From: Alphaproteobacteria bacterium
GTDB lineage: Bacteria; Pseudomonadota; Alphaproteobacteria; Rs-D84; CACZYB01
Direction: 5' to 3'
Length of the DNA stretch: 14,980 nucleotides
Assembly: GCA_009785175.1 (NCBI GenBank)
Contig: WQWV01000023.1
Coordinates: 1-14,980, forward strand
Under the pieces are notes generated by a model, which was not told the DNA's origin, searched no databases, and saw nothing but the letters and a program-made list of their open reading frames with translations. The position numbers were made by a program, and so were the translations under genes. Of the stretch, positions 4,207 to 13,536 are shown piece after piece; positions within the stretch are counted from its first letter, which is position 1, and the number at the start of each line of letters is the position of its first letter.

Positions 4207-4228
4207 TTCGTTTTTCACGAGTTGAGGA

Positions 4229-4257
4229 ATCCCCGGTTTCGGCCGGGGATTTTTTTT
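4229..4257 (+). terminator. Rho-independent terminator of pnp
   Basis: ATCCCCGG (4229-4236), loop TTTCGG, CCGGGGAT (4243-4250), then a run of 7-8 T. Confidence 0.8.
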
Positions 4258-4383
4258 ACTAACGCATATATGACAGCGCGCCGCAGGCGGCCAGTGCTCG
4301 CCCCCACCCGGGCGCTGGCTCAAACAAGTTTTCGCGCCCCCGGGGCTCGACTGTCCGCCGTTTTCTTTTCCTTAAAATATCCC

Positions 4384-4413
4384 TTGACAAAATATTGCGG
4401 GGGGGGGTAGGTT
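4384..4413 (+). promoter_or_regulatory. Promoter module M1 with a G9 tract in the spacer (candidate phase-variable promoter of the flotillin-like gene)
   Basis: Perfect TTGACA (4384-4389), then an 18-nt spacer containing GGGGGGGGG (4399-4407), then TAGGTT (4408-4413). A leader with SD AAGGA follows 8 nt before ATG 4451. The module is near-identical to M2 at 6136-6165. Confidence 0.5.
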
Positions 4414-4450: not shown

Positions 4451-6001
4451 ATGGAACTTATTCAATATATAATGCTTGGAGGCGCATCCGCCGCAACCCT
4501 TACCGCTGCGATCGTCGGTTATAAAATCTTGAAATTGCGCACGATCGTGCCTGCCGATATGGTGCACATTGTCCAAAGCGTAAAGAATACCACATCGTAT
4601 GGTAAAGACCAAAAGGACGAGAATAAAAAAGACACCGGAAACGTCTATTATAAATGGCCTCAGATGATCCCGGTTCTTGGTGTCGTGGTCAAGCAGTTGC
4701 CGGTTTCCAACTTTGATATCCGCATGGATAATTTCGAGGCGTATGACAAGGATCGTGTTCCCTTCAACGTCGATGTTTCCACCTTCTTCCGCATAGCCGA
4801 TACCAACAAAGCGGCCGAGCGCGTCGCCTCGTTCGACGAACTGAGAAACCACCTTACCGTAATGGTGCACGGCTCGGTCCGTTCCATCATGGCGAACGCG
4901 AAACTCGAGGAGATCATGGAGCAGCGCTCGACCTATGGAGAAAAGTTCACGAAGGAAGTCGAAGACCAGCTCAAGGCCTGGGGTGTCGAGCCTGTCAAGA
5001 ACATCGAGCTTATGGACATACGCGATACGAAAGAGTCCACCGCCATCGCGAACATAATGAAAAAGAAGCAGTCCGAAATCGCAAAGGAATCACGCACTAC
5101 CGTCGCCCTTAACAACAAAGAGGCGGATATGGCCGAAATAGACGCCGAACGCGAGGTCGAGGTAAAGCGCGCCGAAAAAGAACAGTTGGTCGGCGAGCGC
5201 AATGCCGAGAAGAATCGCGTTATCGGTATCGCCAACGAACAGCAAAAACAGTTGGTTGCCGAACAGGAAAAAATCACTGCGGAAAAGGATCTCGAAATCA
5301 CAAGGGTCAAAGAAATAACAAACGCCGAAATCGCGCAGAATAAAAGTATCATCGAAGCCGAAACCACCAGGAAGACTGCGGTCATCAAAGCCGACCAGGA
5401 CAAGGAAACCATGAAGATCAAGGCCGAGGCGGATAAGGAAAAGATGAGGATAGACACCGACGCAAAAAAATACGAGACGGAAACCATCGCCGATGCCGAC
5501 AAGCTTGCCAAGGAAAAGAACGCAAGCGCCCACCAGACCATGGAACTTGCCAAGGCCGCCGGTATAAAGGCGACTGGTGAAGCGTCGGCCGATGCCGAAA
5601 AGATGCTCCAGCTTGCCCGTGTTGTCGCGGAAAAGGAGTTGGCGGAAACCATCGGCTCGAACAAGGAGTATCAGGAATACCTGATCAACCTTGAGAAGGT
5701 CAAAAAGAATGCCGAAGTTGCGATCAAGACCGCCGAATACAACTCGGAAGTCGGAAAGGAACAGGCCAAAAACTTGAATAAAGCCGATATAAAAATCATC
5801 ACGAATACTTCTGATGGAAATGTCGGTGGCGGTGTAAGTAAGGTCATGGATTTGTTCTCAAGCAAGGGGGGCCAGGCCGTCAACGGAATGTTGGAAACTT
5901 TGTCCAATACCGATATGGGCAAGGGACTGCTTGAAAAAATCGGTGTTATAAACAAAGGTAAGCAAGACCAAGTAAAAGGCGCGCTTGATAAACAGAGATA
6001 A
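4451..6001 (+). CDS. Flotillin-like SPFH/band-7 membrane protein (FloT/YuaG/YqiK type)
   Basis: 516 aa. N-terminal TM helix (LIQYIMLGGASAATLTAAIVGYKIL). SPFH domain (...FNVDVSTFFRIADTNKAAERVASF...VEPVKNIELMDIRD). Long EA/K-rich coiled-coil. Gly/Ser-rich C-terminal tail (IKIITNTSDGNVGGG...), resembling the B. subtilis FloT architecture. SD AAGGA lies upstream. Confidence 0.85.
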   Translation: MELIQYIMLGGASAATLTAAIVGYKILKLRTIVPADMVHIVQSVKNTTSYGKDQKDENKKDTGNVYYKWPQMIPVLGVVVKQLPVSNFDIRMDNFEAYDKDRVPFNVDVSTFFRIADTNKAAERVASFDELRNHLTVMVHGSVRSIMANAKLEEIMEQRSTYGEKFTKEVEDQLKAWGVEPVKNIELMDIRDTKESTAIANIMKKKQSEIAKESRTTVALNNKEADMAEIDAEREVEVKRAEKEQLVGERNAEKNRVIGIANEQQKQLVAEQEKITAEKDLEITRVKEITNAEIAQNKSIIEAETTRKTAVIKADQDKETMKIKAEADKEKMRIDTDAKKYETETIADADKLAKEKNASAHQTMELAKAAGIKATGEASADAEKMLQLARVVAEKELAETIGSNKEYQEYLINLEKVKKNAEVAIKTAEYNSEVGKEQAKNLNKADIKIITNTSDGNVGGGVSKVMDLFSSKGGQAVNGMLETLSNTDMGKGLLEKIGVINKGKQDQVKGALDKQR

Positions 6002-6024
6002 TATTTGCCCTTGTTAAAGAAAAT

Positions 6025-6050
6025 CCCCCCTCTTCGGAGGGGATTTTTTT
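6025..6050 (+). terminator. Rho-independent terminator of the flotillin-like gene
   Basis: CCCCTC (6027-6032), TTCG tetraloop, GAGGGG (6037-6042), then T7 (6044-6050). Confidence 0.8.
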
Positions 6051-6072
6051 GTAGTATATTATAAACTCGATT

Positions 6073-6122
6073 CACTTCATCACACTATCGCGCTAGTGTG
6101 ATAGTGTAATGAAGTGTTTTTT
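6073..6122. repeat. Palindromic element B (CACTTCATCACACTATC ... GATAGTGTaATGAAGTG) followed by T6
   Basis: 17-bp inverted arms at 6073-6089 and 6100-6116 with one mismatch, a 10-nt loop, then TTTTTT (6117-6122). Outer arms and the CACACTATCG block match element A (545-594). It ends 19 nt upstream of the M2 -35. Confidence 0.5.
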
Positions 6123-6135
6123 CATAAAACAATGC

Positions 6136-6165
6136 TTGACAAAATCCTCCGGGGGGGGGTAAGTT
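6136..6165 (+). promoter_or_regulatory. Promoter module M2 with a G9 tract in the spacer (candidate phase-variable promoter of the small Cys-rich gene trio)
   Basis: TTGACA (6136-6141), an 18-nt spacer containing G9 (6151-6159), TAAGTT (6160-6165), then a leader with SD AAAGGAAA before ATG 6200. The M1/M2 alignment is CTTGACAAAAT..CGGGGGGGGGTA.GTT.AGTCTAT...TAATAAA..AAAGGAAA. Confidence 0.5.
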
Positions 6166-6199
6166 TAGTCTATTCGTTTAATAAACAAAGGAAATAGAA

Positions 6200-6451
6200 A
6201 TGAAATGTATTTATGACGACAACAAAGAATGTAAATCAAACGGAGAGTGCTATGACACGGTCTGCATGGACATGAGCACGTTTAATATGAAAAATTTCAA
6301 AGAAAAAGTAAATGCCGAGCTTGCCGAGCGGGCAAAAGGTTCGGGGGAAAAGTATGCTCCGATAGGCGGCTTGATCCTTAGGTCCGGTCATGTCTTCTCG
6401 GAAATGTATCAGGCGATCTGCTGTGTTAAAGCTTTTGGCAACCAAAAATAG
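6200..6451 (+). CDS. Small cysteine-rich protein, paralog 1 (unknown family)
   Basis: 83 aa. SD AAAGGAAA at 6187-6194. No signal peptide. N-terminal MKCIYDDNKEC...C...C motif, central GSGEKYAPIGG, and C-terminal MYQAICCVKAFG. All three are shared with the next two ORFs. Confidence 0.65.
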   Translation: MKCIYDDNKECKSNGECYDTVCMDMSTFNMKNFKEKVNAELAERAKGSGEKYAPIGGLILRSGHVFSEMYQAICCVKAFGNQK

Positions 6452-6500
6452 GAAATAAAAATGAAGTGGATGCCCGACGGGCGATAGGGGGAAGATAATT

Positions 6501-6737
6501 ATGATATGTATCTATAGCGACAGCAAAGCCTGTGTAAATAACAGAATGTGTTATAAGATAGTTTCGCAGATAGGAAGCCTTGATCCGGATAGTTTCCAGG
6601 GTAAGGTCAATGAAGTCATTATAAGGAAGCAGGGGAACTATGTCCTTAACGGAGGAGTGGCGGCGTGTGCGGAATCAGAAAACAAACATGCCTGTATGTT
6701 CCAAGCGCTTCGTTGCGTAAATGTGCGTCAAGGATAG
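6501..6737 (+). CDS. Small cysteine-rich protein, paralog 2
   Basis: 78 aa. SD GGGGGAAG upstream. MICIYSDSKAC..C N-motif, KQGNYVLNGG centre, and MFQALRCVNV C-motif are homologous to paralogs 1 and 3. Confidence 0.6.
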   Translation: MICIYSDSKACVNNRMCYKIVSQIGSLDPDSFQGKVNEVIIRKQGNYVLNGGVAACAESENKHACMFQALRCVNVRQG

Positions 6738-6743
6738 TTAGTT

Positions 6744-6983
6744 ATGCGATGCAAATTCGACGATTACAAAGAATGCAACGCCGGACCCGAGCAGAAGTGC
6801 CGCGAGATCGTTCAAGCGGGAACCAAATCAAGCCTTGTCAGCAATGTAAGAAAAGTGGTTGCCAATAATATCGAGGGCAGCGGCGAAAAATACGTTGCTG
6901 TGGGCAAAGCCAAGCAGACGGGCAGCTCGCAATGGTATCAGTGGATTTATTGCCTGAAGAATCCGGGCGCGTACGACAGGTAG
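6744..6983 (+). CDS. Small cysteine-rich protein, paralog 3
   Basis: 79 aa. SD AGGATAG upstream. It starts 7 nt after paralog 2 ends. MRCKFDDYKEC N-motif, GSGEKYVAVG centre (identical core to paralog 1), and YQWIYCLKNPG C-motif. Confidence 0.65.
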   Translation: MRCKFDDYKECNAGPEQKCREIVQAGTKSSLVSNVRKVVANNIEGSGEKYVAVGKAKQTGSSQWYQWIYCLKNPGAYDR

Positions 6984-7193
6984 GGAGAACCCGCCATTTA
7001 GCGCGCTGGCGTTGTCATCTGCGAGTAAACCTATCGGTCATGGAAGCATGTAGTCCACTTCCTCAAGGTTTCTCTTGATTCCTAGCCATCATCGCGAACT
7101 GCGCCAGCATTCGCACTTGCCACGCCGTAGATTTATCGAAGGCGGGTCGCCGCACGAAGGCAACTTACGTTGCGTTCGCAGGCAAATTAAACC

Positions 7194-7237
7194 ATTGATA
7201 TTTTTAAGGGGGGGGGCGCCTTCGGCGTAGCTATAAA
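7194..7237 (+). promoter_or_regulatory. Degenerate third copy of the G9 promoter module (TTGATA ... G9 ... TAGCTATAAAT)
   Basis: TTGATA (7194-7199), 8 nt, GGGGGGGGG (7208-7216), then CGCCTTCGGCG replacing the TAGGT of M1/M2, then TAGCTATAAAT. No plus-strand gene lies downstream, only a hairpin and then lon in antisense. Confidence 0.3.
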
Positions 7238-7238
7238 T

Positions 7239-7287
7239 CCCTCCTGCAAAGCTTGCGCTGTCCTGCGTCCAGCTCTTCGCAGGAGGG
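7239..7287. terminator. Long stem-loop between convergent lon and the small-gene trio (possible bidirectional terminator)
   Basis: CCCTCCTGC (7239-7247) pairs with GCAGGAGGG (7279-7287) around a 31-nt internally structured loop. It is 7-15 nt from the lon stop. Flanks are GTTTGGTT on plus and ATTTAT on minus, so the U-tracts are weak. Confidence 0.4.
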
Positions 7288-7293
7288 GTTTGG

Positions 7294-9798
7294 TTATGGT
7301 TGTGCTTTGCTAGCGATGATAGGAGATGAGGCCACAGGCATATCCTCCAAGAGGCGGGCGAAGAAGTTCGCGGGCTCCTTGTCCACAATCGGTTTCGGCG
7401 CGGTGAGGAGCGCTATTTTCAAAACTTCGTCCGCGGTTTTGACGGGAATGATTTTTATCTTCTCTTTCACTATGTCGGGAATTTCGGTTAAATCCTTTTC
7501 GTTTTCATACGGGATAAGCGCGGTTTTGATTCCGGCGCGCATGGCCGCAAGCAGCTTTTCCTTTAGTCCGCCGATGGCGAGAACCCGGCCGCGAAGCGTC
7601 ATCTCGCCGGTCATGGCGATATCGCGGCGCACCGGGATTTCGGTTAAGGTCGATACTATCGAGGTAAGCATCGCGATGCCAGCCGACGGGCCGTCCTTGG
7701 GCGTGGCGCCCTCGGGCACGTGGATATGAATATCGATCTTGTTCCAGATTTTGGGATTTATACCGAAGGATTTCGAGCGGCTCCTTATAAACGATTTCGC
7801 CGTTTCGATCGATTCCTTCATCACGTCGCCAAGCTTGCCGGTGAACTTGGCTTCGCCTTTGCCCTCCATGACCGCGGTTTCGATCGAGAGCATTTCGCCG
7901 CCGACCTCGGTCCAGGCAAGGCCGTTTACGAATCCGACCTCGTCCCTTTTACCTGCGCTTAGGTGGTCGTATTTTTCGGGGCCCAAATAGTCGGCGAGGT
8001 TCGCGGCGGAAACTTTGATTATCTCCTTTTTCACTTCGTCGGCGATGAGTGTGAAGTTGTCGGAGGACGGCGCGGCGCGTTCGATTTTCAACGCCGCCTT
8101 TCGCATGATTTTATCGATTTGGCGTTTAAGGCCGCGGACGCCCGACTCGCGCGTATAGTTCGAAATAACCTTTTTCAGCGCGGCGTTGTCGATTTCGATT
8201 TCGCGCGCGGTAAGCGAATTTTTTTCAAGGCATTCGGGTATGATGTGGCGCTTGGCGATTTCCAATTTCTCGGTCTCGGTATAGCCGGAAAGCTCGACAA
8301 TCTCGAGTCGGTCGAGAAGCGGGCGTGCGATGCGGTCAAGCGAGTTGGCCGTGGTGATGAACATGACCTCGGAAAGATCGTAATCAAGGTCGAGGTAGTG
8401 GTCGGCGAACGTCGAATTTTGTTCGGGATCAAGAACCTCGAGCATAGCTGCGGCCGGGTCGCCATGAAGGCGGTCCGCTCCCATCTTGTCGATTTCATCA
8501 AGCAGGATCAGCGGATTTCCGGTGCCTGCTTTTTTAATCGTGGAAAGTATCTTGCCGGTGGTCGAGCCGACATAGGTTTTCCTATGCCCGCGGATTTCCG
8601 CCTCGTCGTGAACGCCGCCAAGCGAGAGTTTCGCGAATTTGCGGCCGGTGGCGGTTGCGATGGCGCGGCCAAGGCTTGTCTTACCTACGCCAGGAGGGCC
8701 GGCGAAGCAGAGGATTGTCCCCTTCGTCTTGCCGGCGCGTTTTTGGATTGCCAAGAATTCTAGTATCCTGTCCTTGATTTTATCGAGGCCGTAGTGCGCT
8801 TCGGTAAGCGTCTTTTCCGCGAAGGCGAGGTCGTTTTTCACCTCGTCGCGTTTGCCCCACGGAAGATCAAGCACGGTTTCGATGTAGTTGCGAAGCACGT
8901 TCGCCTCGGACGAGTGCGAGTTCATTTTTTTGAGCTTATTCAGGTCGGCCTTCACGCGGGCGGCGGCCTCTTTGGAAAGCGGCGCTTCGGCTATACGTTT
9001 TTCAAGAGCCGAGAATTCGTCGTCGCCTTCGTCGCCAAGCTCCTTTTGGATCGCGCGCATGGCTTCGTTAAGGTAATACTCGCGCTGGTTTTGGTTGATC
9101 GACTTGTTGACCTCGACGCGAATCTTCTGATCCACTTTGATCTGATTTATCTCGTTTTCAAGAAGGGCGATCAGGGCCCTTATGCGGCCGGCCATCGTGT
9201 CTTCTTCGAGTATCTTCTGTTTCGCCGCGATCTTGCCGGGAATGGACATCGCGATCGTTGCGACAAGGAGCAGGGGCTCGGCTATTTCGTCAAGGTCGCC
9301 GGTCGAGGAAACCATCGCGCTGCGCCCGGATTTTAGGTAGCGGTAAAAACTTGCAAGGAGTGCGCGGCGAAGCGTTTCTACCTCGAGTATGCCGTGCGGA
9401 GGGTAGCTTGTTTCCTCGTCGGTCGGCACGGTGGTCGCCCAGAGGTCGCCCTGCCTCGGCTCGAACGAAATGGCGCGGACCTTCTCTTCGGCCTCGACAA
9501 TCAGCTTCATCGAGCCGTCGGAAAGCGTGGTGTTCGAAACCACATACGCGCGCGCGCCGATGTCATAAAGATCGGCGTCGGTTTTCGCCTCTTTCACGCC
9601 TTCACGCACCGCCAAAAGTAGGAGGGGCGAGCCGGTGTTGACCGCCTCGATTATCGACTGGTTCGGCTTCTGCCCGGACGTGATCACCGGGATCATCATG
9701 CCGGGAAAGGGGACTATGTCCGCAAGGGGTAGTATAGGCAACGCCTCGCGCGGATTTCTGTCTTGGCGGGAAAGCCGTCTGGGTTTGGAAAACAACAT
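7294..9798 (-). CDS. lon: ATP-dependent Lon protease
   Basis: 834 aa. N-terminal LON substrate-binding domain ([17 protein letters not shown]). Walker [19 protein letters not shown]+ module. C-terminal serine protease domain with [17 protein letters not shown] and the catalytic KEKLLAA motif. Confidence 0.95.
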
Positions 9799-10772: not shown

Positions 10773-11562
10773 GCTTGGAATTATCGCGGGCGATAAATCG
10801 CTTCCCTCCACGCTTATAAATTTTCTTAAATCCCAGGGGGCGGACGATACCGTTGTTGCGGGCATAATCGGTTCATACGAAGGGGTTGCGGACGCGCGGT
10901 TCAGGCTTGCCGAGCTTCCGAAACTGATTGCATATTTCAAGCGTCTTGGCGTAGAGCGTGTAGTGCTTGCCGGCGGCGTACATACTGCCAAGGTGGGATT
11001 TTCTTTGAAGTTGATCGAGTTCGCGCTGAGGTTGCTTTTTATGAAAAACCGCTATGACGGCGTGTTGCGCCTTGTCGTGCGTGAAATCGAAAAAAACGGC
11101 ATGAAGGTCGTCGGGATCCAAGAGATTATGCCTCAGTTGCTTATTGCCGAAGGAGCTATGGGTGCGATTGCTCCGTCGGAATTGCAGACGGCCGAAATCA
11201 ATAGAGCATGGCGGCGAGCGCGGGAATTTGCCTCTACCGATGTCGGGCAATCTTGCGTGGAGGTTGGCGGAGTCGTTGTTGCGACCGAGAAGTTTGCCGG
11301 CACGAACGAGCTTATAGGGCGGGCGGGAATGCGGCCCGCAGCGGTGCTTTTGAAAATGCCGAAACCGGCTCAGGAAATGCGCGCGGACGTGCCGGTGATC
11401 GGCGTGGATACAGTGGAGCTGTGTGCGGCTCGGGGCTATGCCGGAATTGCGGTCGAGGCCGGGCGCGTAATTGTCGAGGATAGGGCGGCGACGGTGGCGG
11501 CGGCTGATAAAAATAAAATCTTTATAGTTGGATTCCGGCTCGGGGCCGGAATGACAGGGTGA
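10765..11562 (+). CDS. lpxI: UDP-2,3-diacylglucosamine hydrolase LpxI (DUF1009 family)
   Basis: 265 aa. Overlaps the lpxA stop by 8 nt (ATGTCTAG), indicating translational coupling. The N-terminus MSRLGIIAGDKSLP is LpxI-like. Position immediately after lpxA matches the LpxI gene order known from Caulobacter. Confidence 0.65.
   Translation: MSRLGIIAGDKSLPSTLINFLKSQGADDTVVAGIIGSYEGVADARFRLAELPKLIAYFKRLGVERVVLAGGVHTAKVGFSLKLIEFALRLLFMKNRYDGVLRLVVREIEKNGMKVVGIQEIMPQLLIAEGAMGAIAPSELQTAEINRAWRRAREFASTDVGQSCVEVGGVVVATEKFAGTNELIGRAGMRPAAVLLKMPKPAQEMRADVPVIGVDTVELCAARGYAGIAVEAGRVIVEDRAATVAAADKNKIFIVGFRLGAGMTG
11530..11555 (+). repeat. Hairpin element copy 2 (GGATTCCGGC-tcggg-GCCGGAAT followed by GAC), overlapping the lpxI 3' end
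   Basis: 8-bp stem 11532-11539 / 11545-11552, 5-nt loop, then GAC. It encodes the last residues of the LpxI ORF (FRLGAGMTG). Confidence 0.45.
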
Positions 11563-12186: not shown

Positions 12187-12263
12187 GGGTGTTTAGCTCA
12201 GCTGGCTAGAGCATCTCGTTTACACCGAGAGGGTCGGGGGTTCAAGTCCCTCAACACCCACCA
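12187..12263 (+). tRNA. tRNA-Val (anticodon TAC)
   Basis: Hand-folded cloverleaf. Acceptor GGGTGTT/AACACCC. D arm GCTC-AGCTGGCTA-GAGC. Anticodon arm TCTCG-TTTACAC-CGAGA with U33 and A37. T arm GGGGG-TTCAAGT-CCCTC. Discriminator A and an encoded CCA. Confidence 0.85.
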
Positions 12264-12326: not shown

Positions 12327-12410
12327 GCGGTCGTGGCGAAACGGTAGACGCACTACCTTGAGGTGGTAGCGGGGCGACCCATGGAAGTTCAAGTCTTCTC
12401 GACCGCACCA
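12327..12410 (+). tRNA. tRNA-Leu (anticodon GAG), class II with a long variable arm
   Basis: Acceptor GCGGTCG/CGACCGC (7 bp). Anticodon arm CTACC-TTGAGGT-GGTAG. Variable-arm hairpin GGGGCGACCC. T arm GGAAG-TTCAAGT-CTTCT. Discriminator A and an encoded CCA. Confidence 0.85.
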
Positions 12411-12483
12411 TTAAAAAAACCTGGAACGGGACGTCGAAGTTAACTCGCGAGCTCGCTAGCCTTCTCGCTAACAACGCTCGTCG

Positions 12484-12510
12484 GCAAGCTGTGCTTGCGC
12501 TCGGTTTCTT
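12484..12510 (+). terminator. Weak candidate terminator after the tRNA pair
   Basis: GCAAGC-TGT-GCTTGC hairpin (12484-12498), then GCTCGGTTTCTTCTT. The stem is short and the U-tract is interrupted. Confidence 0.2.
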
Positions 12511-12542
12511 CTTGGGCGCGCCATTTTCAAAAGGAATTAAAA

Positions 12543-12614
12543 ATGCGAAGAGTGGAACATATGATGCCTTGGCGCCGCGTGTTTTCATTGCCAGAAAAAT
12601 TGCCGGTAATATGA
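12543..12614 (+). CDS. Possible 23-codon upstream ORF translationally coupled to the kinase gene (MRRVEHMMPWRRVFSLPEKLPVI)
   Basis: SD AAGGA (12531-12535) is 7 nt before ATG 12543. Its stop TGA (12612-12614) overlaps the downstream ATG (12611-12613) as ATGA. The downstream gene has no SD of its own. Confidence 0.25.
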   Translation: MRRVEHMMPWRRVFSLPEKLPVI

Positions 12615-13231
12615 AACGCAAAAAGCCTTTTGTAATTGGAATTACCGGAAAGACCGGGAGCGGCAAGACCTTTGTCGCCGAACTGCTTGGCGAAATGACC
12701 GGGTTCGAGGTGATCCACTGCGACAAGTATCTTAACAACATCATTCTTATAGAACCGATACGGAAATTATTGGAACTTAGGCATGGAATGGATTTGGACA
12801 TCGGACCCGGCGACGAGGCGGGGCGAAAAAATATCGACGGTAAAATTCCATATATGGTTGCGAACATGAGCAGGGCGGAGGCTCGGCTGTTCACGCTTGT
12901 CATCGACATTATGCTTTGCGACGAGCTGATAAAAAGAAGGGGCGAACCGGTGATAGTCGACGGCCTTTATATACCGAAATTTTACTTTTCAAAGGAATTC
13001 GCCAGCCTTGCCTATATCACAAGTGCCGGCGGGACCGCGGCAAGGCACGAAAAGATCGCGCGGCGCCATCCCGGCCTTCCCTTTGAGGTGATAAAGAAAG
13101 CCGACGACCTTTGCAACGGAGTGTTCGGATATAAAAATATCAAATACGACAGGACATTCAGCAACGACTATACGAACGTTCCAGCCGGGCTCGAGCAGTA
13201 TGCGGAAAAAATCCTACGGGCCGCGAGATAG
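12611..13231 (+). CDS. coaE: Dephospho-CoA kinase-like P-loop kinase
   Basis: The ORF-track 12491 (GTG) frame is trimmed to its only in-frame ATG. MKRKKPFVIGITGKTGSGKTFVAELLGEMTGFEVIHCDKY matches the CoaE N-terminus (xIGLTGGIGSGKST...G..VIDAD). Length is ~206 aa. C-terminal conservation is weaker. Confidence 0.55.
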   Translation: MKRKKPFVIGITGKTGSGKTFVAELLGEMTGFEVIHCDKYLNNIILIEPIRKLLELRHGMDLDIGPGDEAGRKNIDGKIPYMVANMSRAEARLFTLVIDIMLCDELIKRRGEPVIVDGLYIPKFYFSKEFASLAYITSAGGTAARHEKIARRHPGLPFEVIKKADDLCNGVFGYKNIKYDRTFSNDYTNVPAGLEQYAEKILRAAR

Positions 13232-13245
13232 CGGAAATTTCGCCG

Positions 13246-13536
13246 TCAATCATCTTTCAAATAACACTTCATCGTAGTATCATCATGGGTGAAAATTGCT
13301 TCGTCGCCCTTGCCGTGGAATTCGGCGGTGTCATTCGTGTATTTAGCGCCGGAGGCCGAGGGGACGCGTTCAAGCCCCCTGAAAAACTCATACGAATTGC
13401 GGCCGGTTTTAAGCAGCACATCGGCGCCGTCTTCGCGCGGCCTTAGCTCGAGCTTTGTATCGGCACAATCATATATGATTTTTTCTGATGTCAAAGCGCA
13501 GGAGGCAAGGCCCATGACCAAAAGTATTTTTTTCAT
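13246..13536 (-). CDS. mliC: MliC/PliC-family lysozyme-inhibitor lipoprotein
   Basis: 96 aa. Signal peptide with lipobox LASC. IIYDCADTKLEL...VPSASGAKYTNDTAEFHGKGDEAIFTHDDTTMKCY follows the MliC pattern (Y.C......L......SASGARY.dG.yE.w.KGDEA.L......C) with the two conserved Cys. Confidence 0.7.
   Translation of the reverse strand: MKKILLVMGLASCALTSEKIIYDCADTKLELRPREDGADVLLKTGRNSYEFFRGLERVPSASGAKYTNDTAEFHGKGDEAIFTHDDTTMKCYLKDD

Follow-up and report, generated by a model that had tools for sequence, protein, structure and literature searches.

What role could three small genes of no recognisable family play next to the gene for a flotillin-like membrane protein? The question is raised by a stretch of 14,980 nucleotides (the window) from contig WQWV01000023.1 of an uncultured alphaproteobacterium (assembly GCA_009785175.1), in which truB, rpsO and pnp on the forward strand are followed by an SPFH gene (4451-6001), by a tandem trio of open reading frames (ORF1 to ORF3) and then by lon on the reverse strand (7294-9798). 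The reading that we tentatively favour, as one possibility among several, is that the trio encodes orphan, locally expanded small cytoplasmic proteins with a probable four-cysteine (Cys4) metal site, and that these are expressed from a slippage-tunable promoter which is parallel to but independent of that of the SPFH gene. The gene structure and the regulatory parts of this reading are much firmer than its biochemical part.

The trio genes and the search for relatives

ORF1 (6200-6451), ORF2 (6501-6737) and ORF3 (6744-6983) all lie on the forward strand and encode proteins of 83, 78 and 79 residues with six, six and four cysteines, those of ORF3 being exactly the invariant ones. ORF3 starts 6 nucleotides past the stop codon of ORF2, and a purine-rich ribosome-binding site of the AGGA/GGAAG type is found upstream of each gene. 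In BLASTP comparisons ORF1 matches ORF3 (E 2e-9) and ORF2 (E 2e-8), and ORF2 and ORF3 are connected via ORF1 only (direct E 0.08), with identities among the three paralogues of 23-37%. An initial annotation of the window, made from the sequence alone, had described three adjacent homologous frames with a Shine-Dalgarno sequence each, and coordinates, ribosome-binding sites and homology all agree with it. The motifs listed there are present as well, although the central one is complete in ORF1 and ORF3 only (GSGEKY) and reads QGNY in ORF2. The alignment of the trio contains 13 invariant columns, four of which are cysteines (C3, C11, C17 and C75 in ORF1 numbering).

In the codon alignment of the trio, positions 1 and 2 are identical in 53-59% of cases and position 3 in only 36-37%, and synonymous divergence (dS) is saturated. 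This contrast implies that the trio has been protein-coding throughout since duplication and, to judge from the codon pattern, that protein-level constraint acts on the three genes. The same evidence bears on the idea that they are functionless young frames, or decaying remnants, that happen to be open by chance. Such an origin would fit the orphan status of the trio, the low confidence of the structure models, the relic of a lost copy described below and the fact that ORF2 was missed by one gene caller. It fits poorly with a conservation of codon positions 1 and 2 that, at saturating divergence, far exceeds that of position 3, with the retention of start codons, ribosome-binding sites and the four cysteines in all three genes, and with a trio region whose sequence is identical in four assemblies, and we consider it improbable. 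ORF2 is present in the Logan and NCBI annotations and missing from the ENA gene calls for the same contig, an omission that illustrates how small genes are lost from annotations and protein databases.

Between ORF1 and ORF2 lies a relic frame of eight codons on the forward strand (MKWMPDGR*, 6461-6487; direct repeat D4, 82% over 28 nucleotides), the ribosome-binding site and first codons of which copy those of ORF1. This frame probably survives from a fourth paralogue that was otherwise deleted. In the favoured reading, local duplication would have produced the array, either in this lineage or shortly after acquisition. The G+C content is 0.40-0.44 across 5800-6800 compared with 0.52-0.59 in pnp and lon, in agreement with the initial description of the locus as AT-richer than these flanking genes, and the nearest relative has no trio at its pnp locus. 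At third codon positions, G+C is 0.52 in ORF1 and 0.46 in ORF2 against 0.63-0.70 in the neighbours; ORF3, at 0.63, is not deviant.

The three proteins are hydrophilic and near-neutral to basic (isoelectric points 7.5-9.1). Their highest 19-residue Kyte-Doolittle mean is below 1.0 and their N-termini are acidic and polar, so that hydropathy and N-terminal composition give neither a transmembrane segment nor a signal peptide in any of them. The cytoplasmic location that had been proposed for them is borne out by these properties.

Searches for relatives returned little apart from the trio itself. Comparison of the proteins with Pfam, NCBIfam, PHROGs and PADLOC gave only sub-threshold noise, and a sequence profile search of the PDB gave nothing meaningful. 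A three-sequence profile run against 5.8 billion protein clusters in a word-indexed search recovered the trio only, the database entries of which are hypothetical proteins (FWD15_04670, FWD15_04675 and FWD15_04680, from 'MAG: Alphaproteobacteria bacterium', MAG being a metagenome-assembled genome). An exhaustive HMMER search of 1.84 billion representatives added to these self matches a single SH3b-repeat protein (E 7.5e-4, summed over five repeats). Because small genes easily go uncalled, as ORF2 did in the ENA calls, DNA was searched as well: no homologue of the trio turned up when JGI metagenome contigs, IMG/VR, plasmids and phages were scanned in the manner of tblastn, and a hidden Markov model of the trio found no extra copy in the source contig, in 817 kb of fetched loci or in the pnp loci of relatives, each translated in six frames.

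Kinship with SH3b domains was considered and rejected as a chance resemblance, with an hhalign probability of 36% over 33 columns and no match to the Pfam family PF08239/SH3_3. The trio has a local motif like that of SH3b/SH3_3 domains (G-x-G-x-K-Y-x-x-x-G ... Y-Q), whereas its predicted topology holds a long helix, unlike theirs. The earlier statement that the proteins fit no recognisable family therefore stands, and on the evidence of these searches they are new at the family level and confined to one uncultured organism. They represent one more well-supported orphan family of small proteins, with a probable metal site; their general importance is limited by occurrence in one organism and by the lack of an assignable function.

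A separate transcription unit beside the SPFH gene

The gene upstream of the trio lies on the forward strand and encodes a protein of 516 residues, hydrophobic at its N-terminus and containing a long coiled coil. It matches Band_7 in Pfam (PF01145, E 2.8e-18) and scores 26 bits against the FloT model of NCBIfam, the cutoff of which is 700. By these matches it is an SPFH/Band_7 membrane protein of flotillin-like architecture and not a FloT equivalog.

Two structures on the forward strand intervene between this gene and the trio. The first is an intrinsic terminator (6022-6050, -16.1 kcal/mol, followed by T7). The second (6073-6123; inverted repeat I1, -25.8 kcal/mol, z-score -7.4) consists of a 44-nucleotide near-perfect palindrome (6073-6116) and T6, and is predicted to be a second terminator and/or could serve as an operator, about 20 nucleotides upstream of the -35 element of the trio. 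The palindrome abuts the trio promoter on its upstream side and has no counterpart at the SPFH promoter, as a possible trio-specific operator might. As two intrinsic terminators intervene, the SPFH gene and the trio do not share a transcript; on these predicted signals, the trio is a separate three-gene transcription unit insulated from its neighbour.

The promoters of the two units are nonetheless alike. On the forward strand, the predicted trio promoter (6136-6165) comprises a -35 element TTGACA (6136-6141), an 18-nucleotide spacer ending in nine guanines (G9, 6151-6159) and a -10 element TAAGTT (6160-6165). The SPFH promoter (4384-4413) has the same -35 hexamer (4384-4389), again an 18-nucleotide spacer ending in G9 (4399-4407), and a -10 element TAGGTT (4408-4413). 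In global alignment the two score 33, compared with -11.5 +/- 4.8 for shuffled sequences, and the homology runs from the -35 element via the 5' untranslated region to the ribosome-binding site (repeat D2, 79% over 48 nucleotides). Even the terminators that precede them are alike: the one behind pnp (4228-4256, forward strand; hairpin and T8, -20.8 kcal/mol, z-score -4.2) and the first one behind the SPFH gene form the direct-repeat family D5. From this comparison the trio promoter is clearly a duplicated copy of the SPFH regulatory cassette, of the sigma-70 type. A flotillin homologue in another alphaproteobacterial MAG (locus L010) is preceded at the same place by TTGACA-18-TAATAT with GGGGAAGG, which suggests that the cassette originally belonged to the SPFH gene. 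The trio had been annotated as lying downstream of the flotillin-like gene and as co-regulated with it. The position is as described, and co-regulation holds in the sense of a duplicated promoter and not in that of a single transcript. The pnp terminator is separated from the SPFH promoter by about 110 GC-rich nucleotides (4257-4365) with neither a notable open reading frame nor an Rfam match.

Downstream of ORF3 no terminator is found before a hairpin at the 3' end of lon (7235-7291; inverted repeat I5), which amounts to -33.0 kcal/mol on the forward and -30.3 kcal/mol on the reverse strand. It is the sole terminator-like structure downstream of the trio and is common to lon. The trio unit would thus carry an untranslated tail of about 250 nucleotides on the forward strand (6984-7234), which is structured (z-score -3.2) and includes a third G9 tract (7208-7216). 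Rfam returned for the whole window two tRNAs and a spurious sub-threshold match of a Thr leader on the terminator region, and nothing in 6984-7234.

Does adjacency to the SPFH gene then reflect a common function? Genes for flotillins of the SPFH2 type usually share an operon with one for an NfeD homologue (PMC2636767). The window contains no NfeD, as had been noted at the outset, and the trio proteins could be imagined as its replacement, which would bind physically to the SPFH scaffold or be carried by it as cargo. Such a flotillin-associated module had been proposed in the initial annotation, and the shared strand, the adjacency and a duplicated promoter that implies parallel regulation are in keeping with it. 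As in the SPFH-NfeD operons yuaF-yuaG/floT and yqiJ-yqiK (PMC2636767), small genes adjoin a flotillin-like SPFH gene. Unlike in those operons, the small genes lie downstream, are separately transcribed, encode soluble proteins without an OB-fold and are not conserved with the SPFH gene. Nor are they NfeD proteins themselves, as they have no Pfam or NCBIfam match at E<=1 and no hydrophobic segment, and as their models show a helix and a hairpin and not a barrel; the lack of a transmembrane segment or OB-fold counts against the module too.

The comparison of neighbourhoods that had been suggested for this proposal does not favour it either. The nearest homologues of the SPFH protein (59-65% identity) come from termite-gut metagenomes and Treponema MAGs, and those in other alphaproteobacterial MAGs are 49-54% identical. 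Across seven loci whose SPFH genes share 46-65% identity with this one (L004-L007, L009, L010 and L012), seven different neighbourhoods are seen, and neither the trio (by tblastn) nor NfeD is found in any of the seven. These unlike surroundings indicate that this SPFH subfamily works without a fixed partner and is normally stand-alone. In a 'Rickettsiales bacterium' MAG, the nearest relative by polynucleotide phosphorylase (PNPase, 78% identity), truB-rpsO-pnp is retained and is followed by unrelated genes, and by the same protein the source organism groups with Rickettsiales-like MAGs. Since the relative and the related SPFH loci differ in this way, the trio and the SPFH gene are lineage-specific additions at the pnp site. 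Co-occurrence with flotillin genes cannot be shown for a trio that has no homologue elsewhere, and adjacency and a copied promoter in one genome are the sole evidence for a functional link. With two terminators in between, seven related loci lacking the trio and, in the nearest relative, G9 promoters that precede unrelated genes too, we give the module little credence.

Guanine tracts and possible switching

Both promoters contain a homopolymer of at least 8 nucleotides between the -35 and -10 elements, namely their G9 tracts. Phase variation by homopolymers in the promoter spacer is known from the poly-G tract of porA and the poly-C tract of opc in Neisseria meningitidis, and the regulatory principle of a homopolymer promoter switch is therefore not new. 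As in those promoters, the guanine run of the trio lies between a good -35 element and a -10-like hexamer, and its length sets their spacing, here 18 nucleotides. Slipped-strand gain or loss of a guanine would shift the spacer from 18 to 17 or 19 nucleotides, so that the trio and, independently of it, the SPFH gene would be transcribed more or less strongly. According to the favoured reading, trio and SPFH gene would then be variably expressed 'contingency' units and not parts of a fixed complex.

A parallel is found in the 16-kb pnp locus of the nearest relative (L133), which has three guanine tracts of 9 nucleotides. One of them (11041-11049, reverse strand) is part of a TTGACA-aacgac-G9-TAAAAT promoter with a 15-nucleotide spacer, at the place that the SPFH gene and the trio occupy in the window; it precedes two genes, for proteins of 186 and 390 residues, that lie directly downstream of pnp and have hydrophobic, signal-peptide-like N-termini. 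The other two tracts stand just after the start codons of paralogous genes (12409-12946, forward strand, and 15459-14861, reverse strand; 50% identity) for cysteine-containing proteins of about 178 and 199 residues, again with signal-peptide-like N-termini. With G9 both of these genes are frameshifted, and with G8/G11 or G7/G10 they would be full length; gene callers gave only their 3' parts. By comparison with known systems, the G9 tracts of the relative present the classical picture of contingency loci. Between 6325-6425 of the window (GSGEKY-x-hydrophobic-...-Y-Q-x-x-C) and 12430-12520 of L133, the signal-peptide region after the tract ('GG-x-KY[IL]A-x-ALLLLS...SNYYTC'), there is a resemblance of about 5 bits, which is not significant and may be due to chance.

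A broader view comes from a metagenome scan for CTTGACAAAAT-N-G(>=7)-TA, in which, among the matches listed, 119 matches in 118 fetched loci (L013-L130) were analysed. In nearly all of these the hexamer after the guanine run is -10-like. Groups of homologous promoters vary in guanine count alone, for example with at least 8, at least 3 and at least 1 contigs showing G7, G8 and G9, respectively. Among the matches listed, which include none of the loci of this organism itself, promoters reading CTTGACAAAAT-N-G(7-13)-TAnnnT occur commonly, in gut as well as in environmental metagenomes.

Phase variation of the trio promoter is plausible by analogy, since the G9-bearing genes of the relative are out of frame and homologous G-tract promoters in metagenomes vary in length. 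A putatively phase-variable promoter had already been proposed in the initial annotation: the G9 spacer and the frameshifted genes of the relative speak for it, and the four assemblies, among which no length variant occurs, do not. The two Logan unitigs (L002 and L003), which come from different sequencing runs, are contained exactly in the window (100% identity) and have the same ends (5786/5787-7129), and their common break points may mark strain-level branch points that flank the trio.

The likeness to contingency systems thus extends to tracts at classical contingency positions in the nearest relative. The differences from porA and opc are that no length polymorphism is seen in the four assemblies, that the tracts of this lineage all measure exactly 9, and that the genes controlled are those of a membrane scaffold and of cytoplasmic mini-proteins instead of surface antigens. 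If the switch is real, an uncultured Rickettsiales-like gut bacterium would stochastically vary a membrane scaffold and a private family of small cysteine-containing proteins, an unusual target given that surface antigens are the usual ones, and this could provide a handle on the role of stand-alone bacterial flotillins. One could go further and view the SPFH gene and the trio as a two-unit slippage-switched regulon, in which the Cys4 mini-proteins form a new class of soluble SPFH clients or regulators that replace NfeD in a stand-alone flotillin subfamily circulating among termite-gut bacteria, and in which the paralogues diversify so that cells display different combinations of scaffold and partner. 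This extension is speculative and we think it highly doubtful.

The tracts of the relative also lend themselves to another interpretation, in which the trio proteins are exported and directed against host or competitors, as duplicated and contingency-switched leaderless effectors that leave by type I/IV secretion or as orphan immunity-type proteins. The proteins under G9 control in the relative are predicted to be secreted and contain cysteines, the organism belongs by PNPase with the Rickettsiales-like MAGs mentioned above, and tandem, divergent paralogues (23-37% identity) of low G+C content in a single lineage would suit such a role. The trio proteins themselves, however, have no signal peptide, PADLOC and PHROGs give no match, and no secretion or toxin gene occurs in the 16.4 kb examined of the 18.3-kb source contig. 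Export is rather unlikely.

The third G9 tract (7208-7216), in the 310-nucleotide gap between ORF3 and lon, has TTGATA before it and no -10-like hexamer after it, and its flanks loosely match both promoters (TAGCTAT versus TAGTCTAT). This tract may be what is left of a third, decayed cassette copy, or may form an antisense promoter that faces lon.

Predicted products and the right end of the window

The structure prediction called for at the outset (AlphaFold2, with the three-row trio alignment as input) yielded models of the paralogues, although these are weak and mutually inconsistent at the N-terminus. The ORF1 model has a predicted local distance difference test (pLDDT) score of 63.5 and a predicted template modelling (pTM) score of 0.55, and in it residues 18-24 form a strand, 30-45 a helix and 51-62 together with 67-76 a hairpin; the ORF3 model reaches 51.8 and 0.33, respectively. 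Only the helix near residues 30-45 and the C-terminal hairpin are shared by the two, and fold searches with the trio models were uninformative.

The invariant cysteines are spaced C-x7-C-x5/7-C, followed after about 55 residues by the fourth. In their soluble nature, their length of about 80 residues and their four invariant cysteines the proteins are like zinc ribbons or rubredoxin-like knuckles. They differ from Cys4 zinc ribbon and knuckle proteins in having no CxxC pairs: two CxxC (or CxxxxC) knuckles are not present, the invariant cysteines being at 3, 11, 17 and 75, and no zinc-finger family of Pfam matches the trio. Perhaps the four cysteines, being invariant, bind one metal ion, most likely zinc, and in a small alpha/beta domain this ion would hold the N-terminal segment to the C-terminal beta-hairpin. 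Our best guess from the sequence is a small metal-binding regulatory or adaptor protein inside the cell.

Several observations weigh against the reading of the trio as switchable cytoplasmic metal-site proteins. The conservation of the cysteines is the only evidence for a metal site, and a classical CxxC knuckle has a different spacing. The 15 N-terminal residues of the ORF1 model, which bear cysteines, have a pLDDT below 50, and the ORF1 and ORF3 models differ in N-terminal topology. As for the promoter, the tract of the trio is G9 in each of the four consensus assemblies that cover it. Furthermore, all six tracts known from the lineage, three in the window and three in the relative, are exactly 9 nucleotides long, and in view of this uniform length they could instead be a fixed sequence element.

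The C-terminal part of the proteins also invites comparison with precursors of ribosomally synthesized and post-translationally modified or bacteriocin-like peptides, of the napABC or NHLP/Nif11 kind, in which cleavage at a Gly-Gly site near residue 57 would separate a long conserved leader from a cysteine-containing core. ORF1 (...PIGG|LIL...) and ORF2 (...LNGG|VAA...) have such a site, with cysteines within the C-terminal 25 residues, and tandem peptides with a GG motif and homopolymer switching are known (PMC11798529). ORF3, on the other hand, has VGK at the aligned position, the NHLP/Nif11 models of NCBIfam do not match, and the C-terminal part, which is conserved, is predicted to fold into a beta-hairpin that packs against the helix; in the same 16.4 kb there is no peptidase-ABC exporter, modifying enzyme or immunity gene. 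A GG-leader identity was consequently rejected for the trio, given ORF3 and the lack of a C39-peptidase exporter among the genes called there. The napABC genes of Neisseria gonorrhoeae encode short cationic helical peptides with N-terminal GG leaders and have immunity and holin genes alongside, in a horizontally acquired segment with homopolymer-tract switching (PMC11798529). The trio resembles that island (PMC11798529) as three tandem small genes in an AT-rich segment with a homopolymer tract, two members having GG; it differs from it in the length of its proteins (about 80 residues), their isoelectric points (7.5-9.1), their predicted alpha/beta structure, the lack of accessory genes and the position of the tract in the promoter. 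Peptide precursors are accordingly a very improbable explanation.

At the right end of the window lie the genes for tRNA-Val(TAC) (12187-12263) and tRNA-Leu(GAG) (12327-12410) and, on the reverse strand, a gene for a lysozyme inhibitor of the MliC family (13246-13536), amid several hypothetical genes without a Pfam match.

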